DNA of 64,000 nt from positions 47,436,581 to 47,500,580 of the forward strand of contig NC_092388.1 of assembly GCF_030028105.1 (NCBI RefSeq), written 5' to 3'. Below are positions 3,021 to 63,406 of the stretch, in pieces. Within the stretch, counting starts at the first letter, position 1. Every line of letters starts with the position of its first letter. This stretch comes from Mobula birostris. Lineage: Eukaryota. A program made the translations under genes and the position numbers. The notes beneath the pieces are model-generated. The model had not been told where the DNA came from. It searched no databases and worked only from the letters and a program-made list of their open reading frames with translations.

Positions 3021-3240
3021 CAATTTCTCATCAGCTCCAAAGAGATCCCTCCAGCAGTCACTTCTTCCCTCTCCAGCCCTGTATTTTGCAGGGACCACTC
3101 ACTTCATGACTCCAGAGCCTGTTTTCCTATCCCCGCCAACCAGTCATTCCACAGGACCTTCCATGCAACTGGAGGAGAGTTAACACCTGTCCATTCACCT
3201 CTTCCCTTCCCACAATCCAGGGACCCAAATAAACATTCCA

Positions 3241-4430: not shown

Positions 4431-5863
4431 CATTCAACCTGAGCCTGAGGCTCTGGAGGGTTCCTGTACTGTGAAGGTGTCCTGCCTCGTCCCTGTGCCG
4501 AAGACGCCGCGCCCCAGCGGCCTCAATGATTACAGACCAGTGGCATTGACCTCCCACATCATGAAGACCCTGGAAAGACTTGTTCTGGAGCTGCGCCGGC
4601 CTATGGTCAGGCCACACTTAGATCCCCTCCAGTTCGCCTACCAGCCCTGATTAGGAGTTGAGGATGCCATCGTCTTCCTGCTGAACCGTGCCTACGCCCA
4701 CCTGGACAAGCCAGCGAGCACTGTGAGGGTCATGTTTTTTGACTTCTCCAGTGCATTCAACACCATCCGCCCTTCTCTACTGGGGGAGAAGCTGACAGCG
4801 ATGCAGGTGGATGCTTCCCTGGTATCATGGATTCTTGATTACCTGACTGGCAGACCACAGTACGTGTGCTTGCAACACTGTGTGTCTGACAGAGTGATCA
4901 GCAGCACTGGGGCTCCACAGGGGACTGTCTTGTCTCCCTTTCTCTTCACCATTTACACCCCAGGCTTCAACTACTGCACAGAGTCTTGTCATCTTCAGAA
5001 ATTTTCGGATGACTCTGCCATAGTTGGATGCATCAGCAAGGGAGATGAGGCTGAGTACAGGGCTACGTTAGGAAGCTTTGTCACATGGTGTGAGCAGAAT
5101 TATCTGCAGCTTAATGTGAAAAAGACTAAGGAGCTGGTGGTAGACCTGAGGAGAGCTAAGGTACAGGTGATCCCTGTTTCCATCCAGGGGGTCAATGTGG
5201 ACATGGTGGAGGATTACAAATACCTGGGGATACGAATTGACAATAAACTGGACTGGTCAAAGAACACTGAGGCTGTCTACAAGAAGGGTCAGAGCCGTCT
5301 CTATTTCCTGAGGAGACTGAGATCCTTTAACATCTGCTGGACAATGCTGAGGATACTCTACGAGTCTGTAGTGGCCAGTGCGATCATGTTTGCTGTTGTG
5401 TGCTGGGGCAGCAGGCTGAGGGTAGCAGACACCAACAGAATCAACAAATTCATTCGTAAGGCCGGTGACGTTGTGGGGATGGAACTGGACTCTCTCACGG
5501 TGGTGTCTGAAAAGAGGATGCTGTCCAAGTTGCATGCCATCTTGGTCAATGTCTCCCATCCACTACATAATGTACTGGGTGGGCACAGGAGTACATTCAG
5601 CCAGAGACTCACGGAGATGCAACACAGAGCGTCATAGGAAGTCATTCCTGCCTGTGGCCATCAAACTTTACAACTCCTCCCTTGGAAGGTCAGACATCCT
5701 GAGCCAATAGGCTGGTCCTGGACTTATTTCATAATTTACTGGCATAATTTACATATTACTATTTAACTATTTATGGTTCTATTACTATTTATTATTTATG
5801 GAGCAACTGTAACGAAAACCAATTTCCCCCGGGATTCATAAAGTATGACTATGACTATGACTA
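4431..5863 (+). mobile_element. 5'-truncated young Rex1/Babar LINE, RT ORF 4723-5637
   Basis: FFDFSSAFNTI, GAPQGTVLSPFLF, KFSDDS, YKYLG; (GACTAT)n tail; near-identical to 12080-13546. Confidence 0.95.
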
Positions 5864-10021: not shown

Positions 10022-13000
10022 TGTAGGGTATTTTATTTAATGGCTTTCTACAGAAGCTGTGTGTTCTGCTGGGTTACCGTTAAAGATAAGGGGTTGTGAT
10101 GTACTTGCTTAGGAATTTCGTGTCATCCAGTCAGGAATGAGGAATTGGGAGAAGGTTGTAGAGAACGATAGGTGGAGAGGTTTTGTGACAGACACTGAGG
10201 TGGCTCGAGGTCTTTTTCGGTCAGAGATGGAGAGAAGCTCAAGAAAACCTGTTGTGGATTCGATCTACAGTTGCTCCGTAGTTTCTTACTTTTAAACTTC
10301 TTAACTTAGTTATTTGTTGTATTTTTTTTCTCATAGTAACATGTTGAAGTTGCACCCTCTCTAGCTGGTGGAGAGAGTTTTACTTGTTTTTTTAGCGCTG
10401 GAATTAGTTACATTCGGACATGTCTCATTAACGTGGCAGCAGGATGGCCTCATTGTTTATTCCAGGGACCAATTGACTGCGCTCATGCCCGCTGGTTTAG
10501 CGAACGGAGCAGCAGACATCCCGGCTGAAATCTGGAGGAAAACACACAGAGGAGGCAGAGGGGGATCAAAAAGGCGAGGGAAGAGGACCGGATCGAGACA
10601 CCAGAGGCTTATGGAGAAGAGAAGTTATAAGCCGTGTCTCCCCTCTCTTATCATGGGAAATGTGAGATCACTGGGGAATAAAATCGACGAACTGACTGCG
10701 CTTGTCAGGAGTCAGAGAACATTTTGGGAGAGCAGTGTCATGTGCTTCACTGAGACGTGGCTGCACGAGGACATACCCAATCAACTCGTTTCCATAGAGG
10801 GCTTCCAGACCATTTGAGCTGACTGGAATTGCACTGAGAGCGGTAAGCGTAAAGGTGGGGGGCTGGCGGTTCTGGTAAATAACAGATGGTGCAATCCTGG
10901 GCATATTACGATCAAGGAACGTGTCTGTAGCCTGGATATTGAACTTTTTGCTGTTGGACTCCGGCCATATTATTTGCCAAAGGAAATTTCGCATGCAATT
11001 ATGGTTGTTATGTACATCCCTCCCTCTGCCAACCCGATGTCGGCGTGTAACATCATTTACACTGTCATAGCCAGATTACAAACCCGAGTGCCCTCATTAC
11101 CATCTCGGGTGACTTCAACCATGGCTAGAACACTGCCCAACTTCATGCAGTATGTGAGCTGTACCACCAGAGGGGAGAGGACTCCGGATTTGATATATGC
11201 TAACGTTAAGGATGCATACAGCTCCTCTCCCCTCCCCCCACTGGGAAGGTCAGATCACAACCTGGTGCACCTAAAACCCCGCTATGTGCCTCTGGTGAAG
11301 AGTAAACCTGCTACCTCGAGGACAGTGAGGAAATGGTCGGAGGAGGCTTATGAGGCGCTCCAGGGTTGTTTTGAGGTGACAGACTGGCAGGCACTCTGTG
11401 AGCCACATGGAGAGGATATTGATGGGCTCACAGAATGCATCACTGATTACATCAACTTCTGTGTGGACTGCAATGTTCCGATAAGAACTGTCCTTTGTTA
11501 TTCAAATAACAAGCCATGGGTGACAAAGGACATTAAGGACATCCTGAATGCTAAAAAGAGGACCTTTAGAGATGGAAATAGGGAGGAGCTGAGGGCAATG
11601 CAGAGGGACCTGAAAGCCAGGATCAGAGAGGCTTAAGACAGGTACAGGAGGAAGCTTGAGTGGAAACTCCAGCCGAACAACATGAGAGAGGTCTGGAGTG
11701 GGATGAGGATTATCTCTGGGTTTCGGCAAACTAGCAACAGAGGAGCGGAAGGCAGTGTGGACAGGGCCAACGAACTTAACCTGTTCTTTAACAGATTTGA
11801 CATTGTGGCCCCTGCCCATCCCCCACATGAGCCATCTGTTGTCGGCCCCCAACCAACACATATTCCACTCTCCCCTCCTACCCCTCCTCACAGTCCCCCA
11901 CCCTGCTCTCATGACTATACCCCTTCCCCACACGAAACCACCACAGTGGGCATCACAGCTGAACAGTTGAGAAGACGGCTGAAACGTCTCAACCCAAGCA
12001 AGGCTGCAGGACCAGATGTTGTCAGTACCAGGGTGCTCAAAGCCTGTGCCCCTCAGCTATGTGGAGTACTTTGCCATGTATTCAACCTGGGCCTGAGGTT
12101 CCGGAGGGTGCCTGTGCTGTGGAAGTCGTCCTGCCTCGTCCCTGTGCCGAAGACACCGTGCCCCAGCGGCCTCAATGATTACAGACCGGTGGCATTGACC
12201 TCCCACATCATGAAGACCCTGGAGAGACTTGTTCTGGAGCTGCTCTGGCCTATGGTCAGGCCACACTTAGATCCCCTCCAGTTCGCCTACCAGCCCCGAC
12301 TAGAAGTTGAGGTTGCCATCGTCTACTTGCTGAACCGTGTCTACGTCCACCTGGACAAACCAGCGAGCACTGTGAGGGTCATGTTTTTTGACTTCTCCAG
12401 TGCGCTCAACACCATCCGCCCTGCTCTGCTGGGGGAGAAGCTGACAGCGATGCAGGTGGATGCTCCCCTGGTGTCATGGATTCTTGATTACCTGACTGGC
12501 AGACCACAGTACGTGTGCTTGCAACACTGTGTGTCAGACAGAGTGATCAGCAGCACTGGGGCTCCACAGGGGACTGTCTTGTCTCCCTTTCTCTTCACCA
12601 TTTACACCTCGGACTTCAACTACTGCACAGAGTCTTGTCATCTTCAGAAGTTTTCGGATGACTCTAGCATAGTTGGATGCATCAGCAAGGGAGATGAGGC
12701 TGAGTACAGGGCTACGGTAGGAAACTTTGTCACATGGTGTGAGCAGAATTATCTGCAGCTTAATGTGAAAAAGACTAAAGAGCTGGTGATAGACTGGAGG
12801 AGATCTAAGGTACCAGTGACCCCTGTTTCCATCCAGGGGGTCAATGTGGACATGGTGAAGGATTACAGATACCTGGGGATACGAATTGACAATAAACTGG
12901 ACTGGTCAAAGAACACTGAGGCTGTCTACAAGAAGGGTCAGAGCCGTCTCTATTTCCTGAGGAGACTGAGGTCCTTTAACATCTGCTGGACGATGCTGAG

Positions 13001-13963
13001 GATGTTCTACGAGTCTGTGGTGGCCAGTGCTATCATGTTTGCTGTTGTGTGCTGGGGCAGCAGGCTGAGGGTGGCAGACACCAACAGAATCAACAAACTC
13101 ATTCGTAAGGCCAGTGATGTTGTGGGGATGGAACTGAACTCTGTCACGGTGGTGTCTGAAAAGAGGATGCTGTCTAAGTTGCATGCCATCTTGGTCAACG
13201 TCCAATGTCTCCCATCCACTACATAATGTACTGGGTGGGCACAGGAGTACATTCAGCCAGAGACTCATTTCACCGAGATGCAACACAGAGCGTCATAGGA
13301 AGTCATTCCTGCCTGTGGCCATCAAACTTTACAACTCCTCCCTTGGAGGGTCAGACACCCTGAGCCAATAGGCTGGTCCTGGACTTATTTCATAATTTAC
13401 TGGCATAATTTACATATTACTATTTAACTATTTATGGTTCTATTACTATTTATTATTTATGGTGCAACTGTAACGAAAACCAATTTCTCCCAGGATCAAT
13501 AATGTATGACTATGACTATGACTATGACTAGGACTATGACTATGACCCAACGAGATACGTGATTCGATGGATTCCAAGAGGGGGAATCCTACTGATGATT
13601 GGCGAATAGGAGTTGGCGCCATGGGTACCAGCTTCTGGAAGATCTGAGCTGCAACCTATGCATATTTGACCATTTTAATTATGATGGGCCCTTTCGTTTT
13701 TTACTTTTTTTTAAATAATGGTTTGGTTAAGTTAACATTCATAGATATACTTTCTTTATAATTGTTTGCCGTGTACGGTCTGTTATTTCTTGCAAGCGGG
13801 TGATTGCATGGGGGCAGTAATTACAAAGTATTCACACAAATTTTGGTTTGGGTGGACAAGACATTCCAACCTCCCGGGTTTGGTGGGACCCAAGAGTCCG
13901 GTGGCTATTAGTGAGGGGCTAACAAACCGCATTTACAGCGATGCCCGTTAAAAAGGGGTTTCA
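10022..13963 (+). mobile_element. Probable solo LTR (10022-10265 and 13547-13963) split by a Rex LINE
   Basis: Starts TGTAGGG, ends GGGGTTTCA; non-coding halves flank the LINE; no clean target duplication seen. Confidence 0.45.
10266..13546 (+). mobile_element. Near full-length young Rex1/Babar LINE (APE endonuclease + RT), disrupted
   Basis: APE motifs MGNVRSL, CFTETWL, GRSDHNLV; RT motifs DYRPVALT, PQGTVLSP, KFSDDS; (GACTAT)n tail; ORF broken into 10368-10817, 10974-11636 and 11682-13226. Confidence 0.97.
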
Positions 13964-20460: not shown

Positions 20461-21871
20461 CGTCTCCTGGTATCTGACACAAAGAGAAAAGAAACATCAT
20501 GCCTGCAATAGTCCTGTCAAGTCCTGTAAGTGTTTTCTATATTTCAGTGAGATCACCTGTTTATTCTTGTAATTTCTAGAGTTTTGGAATCTGGAGAAAA
20601 GCTGCTGCATTTGCTTCTTTATGAATATATGTTCCTTGGATACAGAGACTAGATTTGTACACAACATAGCAGGTGACATCATATTAGGGTCCTATATAGC
20701 TGCTGTAAGAGGTTTTATTTTTGTATTCATATTGTCTTGCAATATGGACTAACATATCAATTTTTTCCCCCAGTCACCTGTTTACTTGTAAGAACACCCA
20801 GTCCCTGTATGATTCAATCGTTCATCTTTTTACATTTCGTTACTGTTTTTCCACTTTGTTTACTAAATGAATGACTTTGTTTTTCTATATTATGTTCCCT
20901 CTGTCATGTCTCGGACCATTCACTTACCCTGTCTGTCCTTCCTGAAGCCTCTCATATCATCGACACAACCTGTTTCCACTGACACTGTATTGTCAGCAAA
21001 CTGAAATCTATCACCCTTTGTCCTGTAATCTAGATCATTGACACAGGCTTGAAGGCAGTTTCTACCTGTCTATTGTAAGACTCTCGAATGGACACTTACA
21101 TAGTAAAAATAAACTTTGATGTCTCAATCCTCATTCTGCCCCTTTCCCCTTATTTGTCTACCTGTACTGCACTTTATCTGTAACTGTGAAACGATATTCT
21201 GAATTCTGTTGTTACATTCCTTTTGTGCCATCTCAATGTGCTTAGGTATACAATGATTAGCCTGGATGGCATGCAAACAAAATTTTTTGCTTACCTCAGT
21301 AAATATTGCAATTACAAACCAATTAGAAATCAATTAAACAGTCGAGGCTCCAGTATTAGCGTCCCAATTGTTTGCTTCACAATGTAAAAATGGCATATTT
21401 ATTCCTTCCAGTTGTCTCTATAAATTGTCATTTTACATTAATTTCTGACCCCAATCCTATGTGCTCTAATTTTGTTTAATAACCTCCTGCATGACTCATC
21501 ACTGAAGTTCCAGCACAATGAATCTTGTCTGCTGAGCAGATCAGAGAGAGAGTTTGAGACCGTTCTTTGTGGAGTTTACACGCCAGTTTTAGAACATGAG
21601 CATGGCCTTTTGGGGCTTGTCTGCGGAGCAGGAGATTGCTTGGGTTCTTAGTAACTTGGCAAGGGCCAATAAAAAAGTGAGGTGTAAGTGGAGTGGGCCA
21701 GGGTTAATGTGGGAGGCTTAAATCAACAGGTTTCAGTGAGAACAGACAAAGGCTCTAAGTAAGTTTCTAGTAAGTTCTTTTATTACCCTTCTCTGTTTAC
21801 TAGTGCATTGAGACTGGATCCGAGGTTAGTAGTGTGTTCATTGTATGAGATGTGGGAATGCTGGGAGACCT

Positions 21872-22573
21872 GTGGTCCCTCAGCACCAGCTCCATAGCAA
21901 AGAAAGCCCAACAGCGTCTCTACTTTCTGCGAAGGCTGAGAAAAGTCCATCTCCCACCCCCCATCCTCACCACATGCTACAGAGTTTGTATTGAGAGCAT
22001 CCTGAGCAGCTGCATCACGGCCTGGTTCGGAAATTGTACCATCTCGGATCGCAAGACCCTGCAGCGGATAGTGAGGTCAGCTGAGAAGATCACCGGGGTC
22101 TCTCTTCCTGCCATCACAGACATTTACATCACATGCTGCATCCGCAAAGCAAACAGCATTATGAAGGACCCCACGCACCCCTCATACAAACTCTTCTCCC
22201 TCCTGCCATCTGGAAAAAGGCACCGAAGCATTTGGACTCTCCCGACCAGACTATGTAACAGTTTCTTCCCCCGAGCTATCAGACTCCTCAATACCCAGAG
22301 CCCAGACTGACACCAACCTACTGCCCTCTACTGTGCCTATTGTCTTGTTTATTATTTATTGTAATGCCTGCACTGCTTTGTGCACTTTATGCAGTCCTGG
22401 ATAGGACTGTAGCCTAATGTAGTTTTTGTGTTTTTTCTTACGTAGTTCAGTGTAGTTTTTGTATTGTTTCATGTAGCACCATGGTCCTGGAAAACATTGT
22501 CTCATTATTACTGTGTTCTGTACCAGCAGTTATGGTTGAAATGACAATAAAAAGTGACTTGACTTGACTTGAC
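21872..22573 (+). mobile_element. Rex1/Babar LINE 3' fragment inserted in CR1 ORF1
   Basis: KKAQQRLYFLRRLRK, HPSYKLFSLLPSGKR; (GACTT)n tail. Confidence 0.92.
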
Positions 22574-45765: not shown

Positions 45766-45915
45766 NNNNNNNNNNNNNNNNNNNNNNNNNNNNNNNNNNN
45801 NNNNNNNNNNNNNNNNNNNNNNNNNNNNNNNNNNNNNNNNNNNNNNNNNNNNNNNNNNNNNNNNNNNNNNNNNNNNNNNNNNNNNNNNNNNNNNNNNNNN
45901 NNNNNNNNNNNNNNN
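45766..45915. other. Assembly gap (150 N)
   Basis: Run of N. Confidence 1.
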
Positions 45916-54610: not shown

Positions 54611-56155
54611 CCCCAACCTGTCACCGTCACGTTACCTGCGTTAAAAGTAATCAAATTTTAAAATATATATATCATTAGCTGCATGGTGCTTCAGGACAAT
54701 CTGAAGTCACAAAATACTGCTTGTCAACCACTCGTAATCCTATTTAAATGCAAGTCTTTTCACCAGTGAACTCAACATCTGCTGTAAATTTTCTCTGTCA
54801 CAGCGGCACTTGTTTGCAGCTGTGACTCTTAGCCACTCGTTTGTTTACGATATGAAACAGTGCCTGACACAATAATAATTCATAATGTTGTGAAGTGAAA
54901 AAAGCACCAGTAAAACCAGAAACAAGGATGGGTAGAGTGGGAGGGAATGTATAACTGGGGGTAGGTTGAGGAGCTTGATGGGAGAGACCTGGTAATATGG
55001 GAATATGAAGCAAAGGGAAGCCTTGCCCATTTATATTTCCAGCATATGCTTCTGGAAGGTGGAAACAAAGAGAAAGAAATCAATTTATTAAGATAAATGA
55101 GAACTGTGTCCTTCCGTCTGGAAATTCTGCCTCTACGTGTACCTAGTAAGGCACATGAGAAAACTGTCCTGATAACACTCTGAAATGAAGAACTACAAGC
55201 CTTGCGTCTTGTGACTAATTAGGAATTCAGGGATCTCAGAACTGTACTTAACCCGCGGTTACCAGACAAGGCAAGAGCAATTCTCTCTTTCATAGAATAA
55301 TTGAGGAAGCCGACTGCTTCCTAGATTTTCCAGATAATTAAACTCATAAAGTCTGTGTTTTTTTATCAACTGGCTTTCTGCCTCCAAACCAAAGATCACT
55401 CAATGCTGTTGCAAGCACATATTATAATAAATTATAGTAAACAGACTTTATAAAACACATATATAATTACAATGTTCTCTAATGAGGCCTGCACTTTATC
55501 AATCCCTTCAGGAAGTCTCATTATCCTCTATATTATTCTTCACAAAGAATTTCCTGAAGGTGACCTTTTTATAGCTGTAACCATGGTTACAGGCCTCTTA
55601 TCCACCAGCTAAATGACATATTCTTGTATGGCAAACGTTATTGGTTTAACAAAAAAAAATCACAACTTCTCTTGAGGTCTTGGCTGATTAAATATAAATT
55701 CAAAATAAAATTGCTTTAGAAATTCAAAGTATGTGTTGCTTACTGATTTGACAATCACCTGGTGCTGCTGACAATCACAGCGTATAAAAATACCTTGCAA
55801 AACTTTCAGAAGATGAAATCAATCCTCTTCAAGATCTCCCTGATAAAGGGAACATGTCATTTATCCAGCTGATTTATTCCATGAATGTTAATGCAAGTTC
55901 AATGATTATTTGATGCAAGTGAAAAGATTGCAACCTTTGGTTATTGGGATGGTGATTCATGTTCTAAATTCGTTGCCTTGTTCATATTGTGAATTTATTG
56001 CAAGTGTGAACCTTCACAGACGTCTTAGTGTGAGAATGTACCTGGAGATATCCCACTTACGCATCCCTGTGGTACTCCGATGTAGTGGCTTTGTCAAACT
56101 CATGTTCCTCCTGTTCTGTATTTAATAGTTCAGTAATATTTGAGTAATCTTGTAG

Positions 56156-56192
<37 letters not shown>

Positions 56193-56196
<4 letters not shown>

Positions 56197-56374
56197 CAGT
56201 TGTTAAGTCAAGTCTGACTCTCTGTGACCTCATGGACCATAGGGTCCATAGGGTTTTCATGGCCTTTCTTCCATGCAGATATTGCTGCTGCCCGGGCTGG
56301 GACCCGGCTGGGTTTGAACTCAGGACCATCTGCCTTGAAGACCAGTGCTGATGCCACTACACCACCAGCCAGCC
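56193..56374 (-). mobile_element. tRNA-derived SINE with RTE/BovB-type tail, inside the Gypsy 5' LTR
   Basis: Minus strand box A tggtgtagtgg, box B gagttcaaacc, tail ggtccatgaggtcacagagagtcagacttgacttaacaactgaac; flanked by (TA)n. Confidence 0.85.
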
Positions 56375-58030
56375 CATATATATAGGTTAATTAAGCATTC
56401 TTGTTGATTTAAATAATTCATTACAGATTATAAGTATAAATAAGTGAACTGCATAATCATGCTATCACATGATATGTGCGTGCCTCGCTTAAAGTAAACA
56501 CGAAGTTAGACTCACATTTCAGACTCCTATGTCTTTCTTTGAATTAATTTCATGTTTTCAAGTTACAATGCATAACACTGACGATGAGGTATTTTTAAAA
56601 CGAACTCGAGATGGCTACCGACTTGTTGAAGTGCAGCGAGGAACGGTCGAGTTAAAAAATGCAGCTCAGCACTAATTCTTTGGAAGGAAAGACACAATCA
56701 GTGAGCACCAGGTGTTAATAATCAGGAAAAAAGAACAAAAATAGCTGGCTACATCAGAAAGATTGACTTGTTTGATTACACAACAGATAACTGGATTTTA
56801 TATTCTGAATGGATTGAGCATTATTTTAAAGTCAATGAAATAGCCAATGAGAAACAAGTACCGATTTTGCTGAGTGCATCGGGTTTAAAGACATATAGTT
56901 TTCTTTGAAGTTTGACTGCTCCAAACAAATCAGCAGAAATGAGCTTTGCTGATATTGTGGAACTAATGCAGGATCATTTAGAACCAAAGCTATTGTTGAT
57001 TGCAGAATGCTTTAGATTTCATAGGTGGAATCAAAACGAAGGGGAGTCGATTTCAGCGTACATGGATGAATTGAAGAATGCCCAACCATTGCCAGTCGGT
57101 AATGGGCTTAATGATGTAATAAGAGATAGATTAGTTTACGAATTCTTACAAGAAAGTATTCAAAAGCGGCTCCTAACTGAAGCATAGCTCACATTTAAAA
57201 TAGCAGCTGAAATTGCCCTATCAATGGAAACAGCAGACAGAGACGCCATTGAGTTACAGTCAGGACTGAAAGGGAGCATGAACAAAATTGCTACGTCTAA
57301 ACAGAAACCTGCCTGGCTGAACAAATTGTGTTACCATTGTGGCAGGTGCTCGCATACACCAGACCAATGCAGGTCTAATGAAAAAATTTGCAGAAAATGC
57401 ACCAAAATACAACAGATACAAAGAGCATGTCAGGCAGACAGAAGTAAACGGACTGCACAGGGAAGACTAAAAGCTAAAAAGTCAAGTTGCAGTTTCAAAA
57501 AGAGAACTAATCTGCATGCTGTTGATTTAAAAAAATCTGATAATGGTGAGAGTGAAAAAGGACTGCGCATACTTGAGATTTACTATGTGAAAAATAACAA
57601 TAGACAAGCAGTATGGCACACACCAGGAGTGAATGGCAAATTAATTAAAATGGAATTAGCCACTGGTTCAGCTGATTCAGTCATTCCACAAAATGAGTTT
57701 GAATGGCATTTCAAAAATACCAAACTGAAGCTGGTAATTATCCAACTAAGAGCTCATACTGGAGAAAAGACAACTCTTTTGGGACTGACATTTGTAACAG
57801 TGAAACACAACAACCAATAAGCCACATTGAGCTTGTATGTGGTAAAAACAGGAGGACAAGGACCAACATTGTGGAGGTGTGACTGGCTTGATTGGAGATC
57901 TATCCACTATTTGCATGCCATATCCCCTAAAATAAAGTCAATGGAAAGCAAATTAAGAAAGGTACCGGATGATGCCACATCTGTCTCCATGCCAAACACC
58001 ATGAACCATTGCCCAACAGAAGACGAACAG

Positions 58031-58642
58031 GTGTTAGTGCCAACCTCTGTGCCTTTGGATGGAAAGCTTATTGGACCAAGCAGGACCAGGCTGCTGAGAG
58101 GAATCATGAAAGAGACGAAAGCAGTGATCTGACTACAACAGCTTTTTGTCAGCAGCATATCTGAGAAAGCAGCTGTTATGTTAATCAGGCAGTTACTTGC
58201 AAAATGAGGCCTGGTTTTAAGTTGGAAGAGAGTTCAATAAGCTTCAGGAAAGTTGCAAGCATTCGGCTTTTGTGAGTATAAAGAACCAAATCTACTCTGT
58301 ATGCATTAATATCATTGCATGAACTCCAAGTAATTGTTATAATTGTTATAAGTGCTGTGATTGTTATATGATTATATAAGTGGGAGACTAAAAGCTGCTT
58401 GTAAAAGCAGATGCAAAGACCAAAGCCCAGTTGAATGAACGGAAGACCAAAAAGAAAGGAGTCAATGGAGATATAAAAACAAAGGATTCGTCAGATGATT
58501 TTGTGGATGAGGAAACCAAGAGGAGAGATTAGATCGTAAAGGGAGCAATAGAAGGATTAATAATAGAATACTCCAGTGAACTAAATAGACTTTCCAAAGA
58601 TCAAGATGCACAAACTAGAAGAAGAAAAGGGAAGAAGAAAGG
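58031..58642 (+). pseudogene. RBM25: Processed fragment of RNA-binding motif protein 25 (N-terminal RRM region)
   Basis: With frameshifts reads VLVPT...TTT.FVSSISEKAAVMLIRQLLAK*GLVLSWKRVQ*ASGKLQAFGFCEYKEP.STLYALISLHELQVGD*KLLVKADAKTKAQLNE...DEETKRRD*IVKGAIEGLIIEYSSELN, matching the vertebrate RBM25 sequence as I recall it. Confidence 0.93.
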
Positions 58643-59570
58643 TGGCTACCATCATCAGAACCACTTACTGTGGACTCAGAGTCAACCACCATGGAGGATG
58701 CCCCAGACCCTGAGATTATTTCACAGTAATGTCTCACCTGACAAGCAGAGTGATCCCCCTTGTCAGCAAAGATGTTATCCCACAAGAGTAAGAAATCATC
58801 CACAGCAATTAAGGCCTGAATGGAACAATTTAAAATTTACTATCCTGCGTATGTCTGTATAGTAGTTATATTACATAGTATACAATGTATGTAGTCATAT
58901 ATATAGCTGTACTGTGTGTACAGACTCACATTTTCGATTCCTGTACCTTCCTTTCAATTAGTTTGAATGTTTTGAAGTTATAAAATGTAACACTCCCAAC
59001 CTTGAACACCCAATGTTCAAATGCTGACCATTCCATTTACCAAGAAAGTTCTCCTCCATGATCCTGACTGCAGTATACATACCACCAACGGCCGACTATA
59101 ATCGTGTGCTTCAGATACTGCATGATGCCATCACCAAACAAGAAACAGTCCACCTTGATGCATTTCAAATCATAGTCGGGGATTTCAATCAGGCATGTTT
59201 GAAGAAATCCCTGCCCGATTACCATCAGCATATAGCACCAGAGGTTCGATCACACTAGACCTCTGCTATACTCAGATAAGGAGTATCTACATTCTATGTC
59301 CAGATCGCATTTCAGCAAATCTGATCATTTGGCTGTCTGTCTCCTACCTGCATACAGGCAAAGGCTAAAGAGCAAGGCTCCAGACATTAGGACCACAAAG
59401 AGGTGGTTGCAAGAGACAGAGGAGCGACTATGGGATTGCTTTGAATCAGTGCACTGGGGTGTTCAAGACTCATCTGTAGATTTGAATGAATATACCACGA
59501 CTGTCATGGACTTTATAAAAACAGTCACAGATGAGCGTATCCCCACAAAATCATTCAGTCTTCCGCAACC

Positions 59571-61961: not shown

Positions 61962-63406
61962 ATAAACGTGAATCAATGAAGGATGCTCGACCGTTGTGGC
62001 AGGGTTTGAATGCAATCACCTCTTACAAAGTGAAAACAAGTAACATAGGTGACGACAGGGCTTCACTCCATCAAAGCATGGAGAGATCATCATGAACTCG
62101 CACAGCACCCAGACCCTGTAGTTTCAGTCTCTGAAGCTGACTTGAGAGCATCGTTCGGAAGGTTGAACCCTTGGAAAGCATCCGGCCCAGGAGGGGTACT
62201 TGACCAGGTACTAAAGGCCTGTGCTGCAGTGTTCACTGAGATCTTTAACCTCTCACTTTGGCACTCTAAAGTACCCAACTGCTTCAAGCAGACTTCAGTT
62301 TTATTGGTGCCTAAGAAGAACGTCGCAACTTGGCTCAATAACTATTGTCCAGTAGCACTTACATCCACTGTGATAAGGTACTTTGTAAAGTTGGTAATGA
62401 AACTTCCTGCCTGAGAAGTGGCTTGGATCTGCTCCGATTTCCAACGGATCCACTCCACTGGCAGAAGAAGTCCACAGCAGATGCCATTTCATTGGCTCAC
62501 CACTCTACCCTGGAACATCTGGATAGCAAACATGCATACATCAGAATGCTCTGTATCGATTACGGCACGCCGTTCACTACTATCATCCCCTCAAAGCTAA
62601 TCAATAATCTCCAAGACTTTGGCCTCAATACCTCCTTGTGCAACTGGATCCTCGATTTCCTCACTTGCAGACCCCAGTCCGTTCGGATTGGCAACAACAC
62701 CTCCTTCACAATCTCCATCAGCACAAATGTACCACAAGGGTGTGTGCTTAGTCCCTGCTCTACTCTCTTTATACTCATGTCTGTGCGGCTCAGAGCTCCA
62801 ATTCCATATTACGTCTGCTGATGGCACCACTGTTCCTAGCTAAGTCAAAGGTGGTGATGAATCGACACATAGAAGTGAGATTGAAAACTGAGTGAACGAT
62901 GCCACAATGACAGTAACCTCTCACTCAACATCAACAAAACTAAAGAGCTGATTATTGACTAAAGTGGAGGAAACCGGAGATCCATGAGCCAGTTCACACC
63001 AGGAGATCAAAAGCGGAGAGGGTCAGTAACTTTAAATTGCTTGCTGTTATTATATCAGGGGGTCTGACTTAGGCCAGTACATTAGTGCTAACACTAAAAG
63101 GCGTGCCAGCGCCTCCTCTTTCTCCAAAGTTTGTGAGGATTTGGCATGCCATCTAAAACTTAGGCAAGCTTCTATGGATGCACAGGGGAAAGTATCCTTA
63201 CTGGGTGCACGGTGGCCTGGTATGGAAACACCAATGCCCAAGAACAGAAAACTCACAAAAACTGGTGGACATCATCCAGCCCATCACAGGCAAAGCCCTC
63301 CCCACCACCGAGCACCTCTACAAGGAGTGCTGCACAAGAAAACGGCAAGCCGTGCTACAGGTGTGTATGCTTTGTCAAATATTTAAAGGAAATGATGCAG
63401 ATAATA

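Follow-up and report, generated by a model that had tools for sequence, protein, structure and literature searches.

A dead Gypsy LTR element at positions 56112-58992 of the analyzed window (64,000 nt of Mobula birostris contig NC_092388.1) retains an LTR, primer-binding site (PBS), gag, and protease, with spliced RBM25 mRNA in place of its reverse transcriptase (RT)/RNase H/integrase core. It is one of about 1,400 to 2,100 chimeric copies, all old and dead. In the reading we favor, at a probability of roughly 0.7, these copies form an old non-autonomous Gypsy family that originated by template-switch capture of a host mRNA, the RBM25 segment most likely being neutral filler.

Structure of the window element

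All features below lie on the forward strand unless indicated. The 5' LTR (56112..56577; TG...CA), ~245 bp when uninterrupted, is split by a TA run and an insertion (56194..56375, reverse strand) with TA runs on both sides. This later insertion is private to the window copy among the loci seen, 56160-56376 being a gap in all alignments; it is presumed to be SINE-like from its A/B-box-like motifs, and ARAGORN at a lowered threshold returned just two weak, overlapping calls on it. A degenerate PBS (56579..56589) occupies the same place after the LTR end as in other copies, and a search for PBS motifs did not name the primer tRNA. The gag remnant (56741..57560), recognized by tblastn to other copies, contains internal stops and a Cys/His zinc knuckle near 57332-57373 (CCHC-type); Pfam matched it to DUF7083 alone, at E 0.03. 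Gag lies in a single frame with the protease region, which extends with its linker to the RT start position (57561..57972) and has a degenerate active-site motif in the window copy.

The 5' crossover (57973..57982) consists of TGCCACA, 7 nt found both in pol and in the terminal part of RBM25 exon 3, followed by the final 3 nt of exon 3. Downstream are a 48-nt, in-frame RBM25 cassette exon (exon X, 57983..58030; host C1:154450900-154450947) with AG/GT borders, and spliced exons 4, 5, and 6 encoding the RRM (58031..58469), with 84-94% DNA identity to the host exons, stops, local shifts, and a 46-nt insertion (58332-58377) private to the window copy. Exon 7 continues to an internal deletion common to copies (58470..58611) that joins it, independently of splicing, to the start of exon 9 and a remnant of the 3' crossover (58612..58640; exon 9 part 20/20 nt identical); the window copy is the frequent short form. 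Next (58641..58883) come the C-terminal integrase tail, which matches that of L102, an RT-bearing relative, and the element's 3' untranslated stretch. The 3' end of the 3' LTR (58922..58992) closes the element, the polypurine tract (PPT) and first ~170 nt of that LTR having been lost. The sequence-only reading had placed the host segment at 58031-58642; its RRM part was right, but its start was not, since host DNA begins at 57973-57983 with the end of exon 3 and exon X. That reading's four stops (58205, 58238, 58389, and 58530) are all present, and a fifth, at 58130, falls inside a locally shifted stretch.

Flanking CTCC duplications had also been described, and an exact 4-bp repeat is present (56108..56111 and 58993..58996), but the 4-bp unit did not stand: among 15 other chimeric copies, the duplication is an exact 5 bp in six and 5 bp with at most one mismatch in 11, while 4 bp fits none. 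Given this 5-bp norm, which falls in the 4-6 bp range of the Ty3/Gypsy criterion, the CTCC of the window is probably what remains of a 5-mer after loss of one base.

Identity of the captured mRNA and its crossovers

Identification of the RRM peptide as RBM25 was borne out, the best matches being vertebrate RBM25 proteins at 80-86% amino acid identity (best 86%); among the 120 protein matches listed of 364, those named were all RBM25, or else unnamed RRM or hypothetical proteins. Alignment to the host locus agreed with the description of the fragment as intron-free and in sense orientation, with exon joints at the GT-AG borders of the host RBM25 gene. The captured span (~1.07 kb) touches nine exons: it opens in the last bases of exon 3, includes seven exons in full, and stops within exon 10. 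The exon X peptide also opens Heptranchias P0011; joints of the host locus into and out of exon X occur in sequence runs guessed to be RNA, and the 15 shown of 244 host-transcript joints included none linking exon 3 directly to X. As the sequence-only reading noted, the fragment has neither poly(A) nor its own target duplication, and it also lacks the mRNA 3' end.

One 5' junction is common to all copies seen, and the eight RT-type relatives part ways directly after TGCCACA. The three bases that precede exon X are ACT in 45/67 copies and GCA-like in RT-type copies. At the 3' crossover, exon 10 and the integrase tail share 10 nt, GGAGAAGAAA, in longer copies; this junction is common with the tail of L102, and the match rests on that one RT-type copy, whose integrase end is intact. 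Exact k-mers shared with the mRNA model occur at 165/1794 pol positions for 7-mers and at 5/1791 for 10-mers. The two crossover matches with the parent element support the proposed template-switch capture and are the mark of a double switch. The 5' crossover preserves the pol frame (one in three by chance), from which we infer that the founder held a Gag-protease-RBM25 fusion frame encoding a putative fusion protein.

Parent family and copy number

Copies of the family bear the hallmarks of Ty3/Gypsy elements: ~245-bp LTR pairs with TG...CA termini, a PBS, and a purine tract. In 8/30 loci picked by the protease region, the protease-linker DNA runs on into RT, and relatives bear the pol order protease-RT-RNase H-integrase (RVT_1 in L107). 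The L102 frame contains RNase H, then the integrase zinc domain, then the tail seen at 58641..58883; in this one copy, the PPT and LTR follow within ~300 nt of the tail, and env was not seen. Comparison of protease-linker DNA from 56 chimeric versus eight RT-type copies revealed zero diagnostic sites (distances 0.19, 0.15, and 0.16), and the LTR-LTR distance is ~0.17. Three RT-type copies (L100, L101, and L105) are deletions rejoining at the same tail site, so the family also bred short derivatives without host DNA.

The chimera had been proposed to be multicopy, single-copy junctions being named beforehand as the contrary outcome; genome counts placed the chimeric junction at 1,424 sites and the RT-type junction at 3,027 (controls, 0), making the chimera about one third of all family junctions counted. 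The chimeric-junction pattern recovers 46/67 known chimeric copies and 0/8 RT-type copies, so 1,424 is a lower bound. The target duplications of chimeric copies are all different, and the junctions are common to these independent insertions, which confirms them as real and excludes an assembly artefact. The short form, with the Arg-Glu repeat deleted and the RRM whole, accounts for 50/67 copies, excluding eight long copies also caught by the short-joint pattern. A proposal that the short form's deletion brought the integrase tail back into frame was rejected: the tail was in frame in only 11/44 measurable copies (57 given), a number that does not exceed chance.

A proposed route of capture and spread

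A Gypsy particle would have co-packaged an RBM25 mRNA of the exon 3-X-4 isoform. During minus-strand synthesis, the 10-nt match would have let RT jump from the integrase tail of the element RNA to the start of exon 10. It would then have copied ~1.07 kb of RBM25, finishing in the last bases of exon 3, where the 7-nt match would return it to the element at the RT start. The product would retain every cis signal (LTRs, PBS, PPT, the 5' 1.9 kb, and the 3' tail) and, with RT, RNase H, and integrase gone, would have been copied in trans by autonomous relatives. Over several rounds, the long form may have undergone a deletion between similar purine-rich stretches (exon 7; exon 8/9), followed by more trimming of the Arg-Glu repeat, to yield a short non-autonomous element packaged efficiently with RBM25 as passenger.

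Decay of the captured frame

The RBM25 part decays neutrally. The ratio of non-synonymous to synonymous changes (N/S) is ~1 for rare variants and 0.94 in the RRM core, five single copies gave N/S 0.72-1.4 with small counts, and heterozygosity is flat over codon positions. Of 150 copies scored, 17 have no stop and the best reach only 84% amino acid identity; no domesticated copy was found among these 150 of 5,639 candidates. A nonsense variant within the RRM is present in 7/37 long copies. Only five shared non-CpG changes were seen; each is non-synonymous and lies upstream of the RRM core. The captured frame is thus without sign of purifying selection, the test for selection during spread being low in power owing to short internal branches. 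Near-fixed differences between the family and today's host RBM25 comprise 16 synonymous and one non-synonymous, assignable to neither the host nor the element branch; faster synonymous change in the host gene after capture was not supported (16 seen versus 12.4 expected, P 0.19). No annotated junction-spanning fusion protein was found at 129-413 aa (nine candidates) or 584-2000 aa (five candidates), which is weak evidence because both queries were decayed. Overall, nothing indicated that the captured RBM25 piece had been of use.

Alternative explanations

An unlikely reading, though the strongest of the rivals considered here, accepts the same origin and holds that the RBM25 piece aided spread. 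Either a Gag-protease-RBM25 fusion, releasing the RRM instead of RT, or the RBM25 RNA itself would have improved how element RNA was exported, stabilized, spliced, or packaged, or would have blunted host silencing; in this last variant, silencing RBM25 sequence would also strike an essential gene. That the 5' crossover falls in frame at the RT start is consistent with such a role, as are the one-third share of counted junctions and the whole RRM in a frequent form from which the Arg-Glu repeat is gone, but template switching deletes repeat-rich DNA anyway, and RT-type deletions without host DNA multiplied too. The founder's frame runs on into the tail in 23/44 measurable short copies, at a nominal P of 0.007 that is overstated because copies share ancestry. 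None of the five shared changes falls in the RRM core, yet none is synonymous either, although selection on the protein would permit synonymous changes; the flat codon-position pattern and the RRM nonsense variants likewise argue against this reading. It is doubtful, and slightly more so, that the RBM25 piece was the cause of the family's success, with the RRM of a Gag-protease fusion acting on element RNA, or with the essential-gene sequence as a shield against piRNA silencing and small RNAs from the ~2,000 copies still pairing with RBM25 mRNA. If true, the family would exemplify a retrotransposon that stole an RNA-binding domain for its own use, on a scale about a hundredfold larger than that of the LTR captures described in the papers cited below.

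A LINE-made RBM25 retrocopy in a Gypsy copy that became a master element, after DNA deletions took the ends of the retrocopy and the pol core, is disfavored and improbable. LINE RTs are plentiful (4/13 window ORFs scanned) and deletions leave microhomology as well, but two deletions would be required, each ending on an mRNA-element match; poly(A), 3' exons, and an inner duplication occur in no copy, and all copies seen have the same 5' junction. The C-terminal half of RBM25 was also found at the host gene alone (protein search; four matches; 23/23 candidates scored); a PWI family search gave three matches at other places and missed the host RBM25 gene. Retrovirus-style transduction, in which an element in an RBM25 intron produced a read-through spliced from a pol donor to the exon X acceptor, is very improbable, although the long match in the window copy begins exactly where exon X does and two family LTR remnants lie 36-64 kb upstream of the first RBM25 coding exon. 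Those remnants are antisense, the intron before exon X contains no family DNA, and in 45/67 copies the three bases before exon X come from host exon 3 and not from the element; on this last ground a splice-donor origin of the 5' junction was rejected.

Discussion

After capturing coding mRNA of its host, an LTR element can grow into a major repeat family of a vertebrate rather than a handful of copies. In the present family, a single mRNA isoform of an essential splicing factor survives as ~2,000 dated fossils, and with it a cassette exon that is otherwise unannotated. From these copies, one can test directly whether captured cargo comes under selection as an element spreads, and whether the host gene is affected when the element is silenced. 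Repeat masking may hide RBM25 exons, and RBM25 read mapping and gene counts may be inflated in these genomes.

Acutely transforming retroviruses with v-onc carry spliced host sequence instead of replication genes, in frame behind gag, and are helper-dependent. The RBM25 family shares these traits and differs in having no env, no infection, and a captured frame without sign of selection; the likeness drawn by the sequence-only reading to an oncogene-transducing retrovirus thus holds for mechanism but not for selection on the captured frame.

Literature searches returned no paper joining RBM25 with retrocopies, or RBM25 with shark and transposable; RBM25 is mentioned in none of 20 further papers listed, and PMC3597677 contains neither RRM nor RBM25. 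Crocodilian ERVs (PMC4299795, which also mentions RSV, WEHV, and v-Kit in the part of its text considered) captured KIT-ligand and nectin3 mRNAs in nine and six copies, in the env region and with purifying selection reported. As described there, these too are host mRNAs in a vertebrate LTR lineage, with several copies in more than one species; in contrast, the RBM25 family is Gypsy, its pol core is replaced, and purifying selection was not found. For bat Helitrons (PMC4224331), the portion of the account used here gives gene-fragment classes of 28-5,505 copies, and spliced mRNA cases totaling 118 copies that LINE-1 inserted, leaving poly(A) and duplications. Host gene pieces are likewise amplified there by a vertebrate transposon, but by a rolling-circle DNA mechanism.

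The closest parallels are the LTR-mediated retroposition chimeras of Tan et al. 2016 (PMC5131818), which, as far as its running text reports, are young and few per gene (maize Bs1, 1-5 copies), with secondary rounds named for two fly cases; its tables could give additional copy numbers. As in those chimeras, a partial spliced mRNA lies between discontinuous halves of an LTR element, microsimilarity marks both switch points, poly(A) and a separate duplication are lacking, and the product was recopied as a non-autonomous element. Unlike the cases described there, the RBM25 family retains gag and protease in frame with the host piece and comprises at least 1,424 copies with one junction from an old event. 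The mechanism is thus already known, and the scale is unusual.

Structure of the element and origin of its RBM25 exons

The LTR element occupies 56112 to 58992 of the window (G000:C23:47436581-47500580, in an assembly of 4.0 Gb). A 5′ LTR (56112–56577) and a degenerate PBS are followed by gag and protease remnants that share one frame, with three stops in it, from 56741 to the junction, past which an RRM peptide continues the same frame. The stops at 58205, 58238, 58389, and 58530 noted in the sequence-only reading are present, and its assignment of this peptide to RBM25 was borne out: residues 36 to 88 match 364 proteins, the top ones 80 to 86% identical and those with names among the 120 listed being RBM25, while Pfam RRM_1 matched at E 0.008, below cut-off. 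A SINE-like insert with an A/B-box-like head lies on the minus strand in a TA run within the 5′ LTR (56194–56375). Elsewhere the window carries LINE-type RT frames on the plus strand (10365–13226, 4651–5637, 21849–22310, and 62342–62821), with an ALKBH8_N domain in three ORFs and an open frame of 529 aa (11637–13226) representing a younger LINE copy, and a 150-nt run of N (45766–45915) away from the LTR element.

The C-terminal half of RBM25 has a single locus, at C1:154.48–154.49 Mb (four matches, with 23 of 23 candidates scored). Host exons, found by mapping two RBM25 proteins onto C1:154340001–154500000 and numbered here with exon 2 as the first coding exon found, have AG/GT borders throughout and are 89 to 100% identical to a Heptranchias protein, which points to a cartilaginous fish as host. 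Window positions 57983 to 58641 correspond to five separate host exons (X, 4, 5, 6, and 7) at 84 to 94%, joined exactly at AG/GT borders, in agreement with the earlier description of a fragment without introns. That RBM25 sits within an LTR element was likewise correct, but the host DNA begins at 57973–57983, with the end of exon 3 ahead of exon X, rather than at 58031. Within exon 6 the window copy has a private 46-nt low-complexity insertion (58332–58377), 30 nt of which also match host intron sequence at C1:154476058, probably a repeat.

Exon X is an in-frame cassette exon of 48 nt (L120:6301–6348 of the host locus, G000:C1:154450900–154450947); among 117 database proteins carrying the RRM start, only the Heptranchias model P0011 has it, as its opening segment. 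Exon W, 30 nt and also in frame (L120:1425–1454, G000:C1:154446024–154446053), falls, like exon X, after the proline-rich start and ahead of the RRM. Contigs of four public runs, presumed RNA, were read on the host locus and supplied joints with GT..AG ends for both exons: exon 3 to W in four of four runs, W to X in two, W to exon 4 in three, and X to exon 4 in all four; a direct exon 3-to-X joint was not found among 15 of 244 joints listed. The W joints seen in host runs do not occur in the element, whose isoform skips exon W, and exon X is therefore genuinely an alternative exon in the host gene. Two antisense LTR remnants of the element family lie 36 to 64 kb upstream of the first coding exon (G000:C1:154378702–154378908 and 154406317–154406557, minus strand).

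Both crossovers fall on matching sequence

Chimeric copies, in which the protease linker leads into RBM25, and RT-type copies, in which it leads into RT, have the linker in common up to TGCCACA; RT follows in the latter and the final 3 nt of exon 3 plus exon X in the former (ACT in 45 of 67). Host exon 3 likewise ends in TGCCACA, in the same codon phase as the element, so the 5′ crossover is in frame. Long copies, which keep exon 8, continue through exons 8 and 9, extend ∼27 nt into exon 10, and rejoin the element at GGAGAAGAAA. Exon 10 shares this sequence with the integrase tail of L102, an RT-type copy in which RNase H and an integrase zinc domain precede the same tail as the window's; the 3′ crossover does not preserve the frame of the tail. 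Exact 7-mers common to the mRNA model and pol occur at 9% of pol positions tested and 10-mers at 0.3%. The RBM25 piece showed neither poly(A) nor an inner duplication. With matches at both crossovers, the proposal of capture by template switching during LTR reverse transcription is supported. The purine-rich integrase-tail site is a switching hot spot; three RT-type copies (L100, L101, and L105) have internal deletions rejoining at the site used in the RBM25 capture.

The chimera is multicopy

With the RBM25 stretch as query, the genome returned 2,910 candidates, and 40 scored gave 43 matches. Gag or protease DNA lay upstream in 29 of 29 other loci fetched, and tail or LTR downstream in 28. 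When 30 loci were chosen by protease-region DNA only, a pick biased towards likeness to the window copy, 22 (the window included) led into RBM25 and eight into RT. Junctions were counted genome-wide with 24-nt patterns (≤3 mismatches) differing at five places between the two types, yielding 1,424 chimeric (718 + 706) and 3,027 RT-type (1,466 + 1,561) sites, and none for reversed controls. Of the 67 known chimeric copies the chimeric pattern recovers 46, and of eight RT-type copies none, a recovery that implies about 2,100 chimeric copies in all; the RT pattern recovers seven of eight and none of 67. Both ends were available, with LTR ends judged by eye, in 16 of 32 chimeric loci checked, and L117, whose 5′ flank resembles a purine tract, was dropped. 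A 5-bp target duplication is exact in 6 of the remaining 15 and within one mismatch in 11, whereas 4 or 6 bp at that tolerance fits none, so the 4-bp CTCC suggested earlier is not the family norm. As the duplicated sequences all differ, the chimeric copies are independent insertions; the multicopy state raised earlier as a possibility is thus confirmed, and the junctions are not single-copy.

Among the first 67 copies, 50 carry a deletion from exon 7 to exon 9 (short form), 11 keep exon 8 (all out of the protein-picked set), and six are truncated. An exon-8 pattern, which undercounts through one built-in family-wide mismatch, has 153 genome sites, the host gene among them; 28 new loci of 3 kb each show the protease linker in 22, the exon 9–10 joint in 20, and the tail in 16. 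The deletion connects two similar purine-rich stretches, and the Arg-Glu repeat was then trimmed further. Three exon X changes seldom occur in long copies and are nested among the short ones, indicating several master generations. L103 (G000:C24:27780000–27789500), an RT-type copy with an exon 7 piece and the short joint at its 3′ end, is a later, secondary recombinant of the two types. Chimeric copies at G000:C35:35325508, C35:35427336, and C3561:17020 share one stop-free frame of 236 aa at 67 to 68% identity and are probably segmental duplicates or haplotigs.

Age of the capture

LTR-LTR K2P distances are 0.11 to 0.24 (median 0.17) in 11 measurable chimeric copies and 0.20 and 0.23 in two RT-type copies. 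Divergence is 0.174 between copies and 0.13 from the host, and chimeric and RT-type copies cannot be told apart by their protease linker. These observations agree in placing capture and spread within the main burst of the family, at a depth of about 0.085 substitutions per site. With the epaulette shark rate reported in PMC10587355 (7e-10 per generation), which may not hold for this lineage, the burst would date to ∼1e8 generations ago, and we claim only great age for it. Two other organisms differ from this genome in intron DNA by some 5 to 8%, less than the copies differ from each other, so the burst came before their split; diverged contigs with the X-to-exon-4 join occur in their runs too.

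Selection on the RBM25 piece

RBM25 is most likely passive filler (probability about 0.7). Rare variants set against the host frame have N/S ratios (non-synonymous to synonymous) of 0.98 to 1.14 by class and 0.94 in the RRM core, and heterozygosity in the RBM25 part is even across codon positions (9, 11, and 9 high-variation sites). Neutrality is also favored by a nonsense variant within the RRM in 7 of 37 long copies and by the finding of no copy above 84% amino acid identity among 150 scored. That an RBM25 fusion or RNA effect helped the element is unlikely. Two points speak weakly against neutrality: all five shared non-CpG changes fall outside the RRM core, on its upstream side, although none of them is synonymous, and the founder's frame into the tail is preserved in 23 of 44 short copies. 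Near-fixed differences from the present host comprise 16 synonymous and one non-synonymous, close to the 12.4 that the host branch by itself would be expected to contribute. Internal branches are short and give little power on selection during the spread. Gag-protease heterozygosity leans to third positions (39, 28, and 52; P 0.03), perhaps through CpG or through older diversity, shaped by selection, that was acquired from autonomous relatives.

Comparison with known gene captures

The element passes every structural test of LTR-capture chimeras, a known kind, and its layout is the one described by the double template-switch model of Tan et al. 2016 (PMC5131818), where further copying as a non-autonomous element is foreseen. 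In the open-access articles searched, no paper was found on RBM25 together with retrocopies or with transposable elements of sharks. Maize Bs1 is given 1 to 5 copies in PMC5131818; crocodilian ERVs are described with KIT-ligand in nine copies and nectin3 in six, under purifying selection (PMC4299795); and the available part of a plant review (PMC13317346) is without copy numbers. Bat Helitrons are described as carrying gene fragments at thousands of copies, their spliced mRNA cases totaling 118 and arising by another route (PMC4224331). Compared with the LTR captures cited here, the RBM25 chimera is roughly a hundredfold larger in scale.
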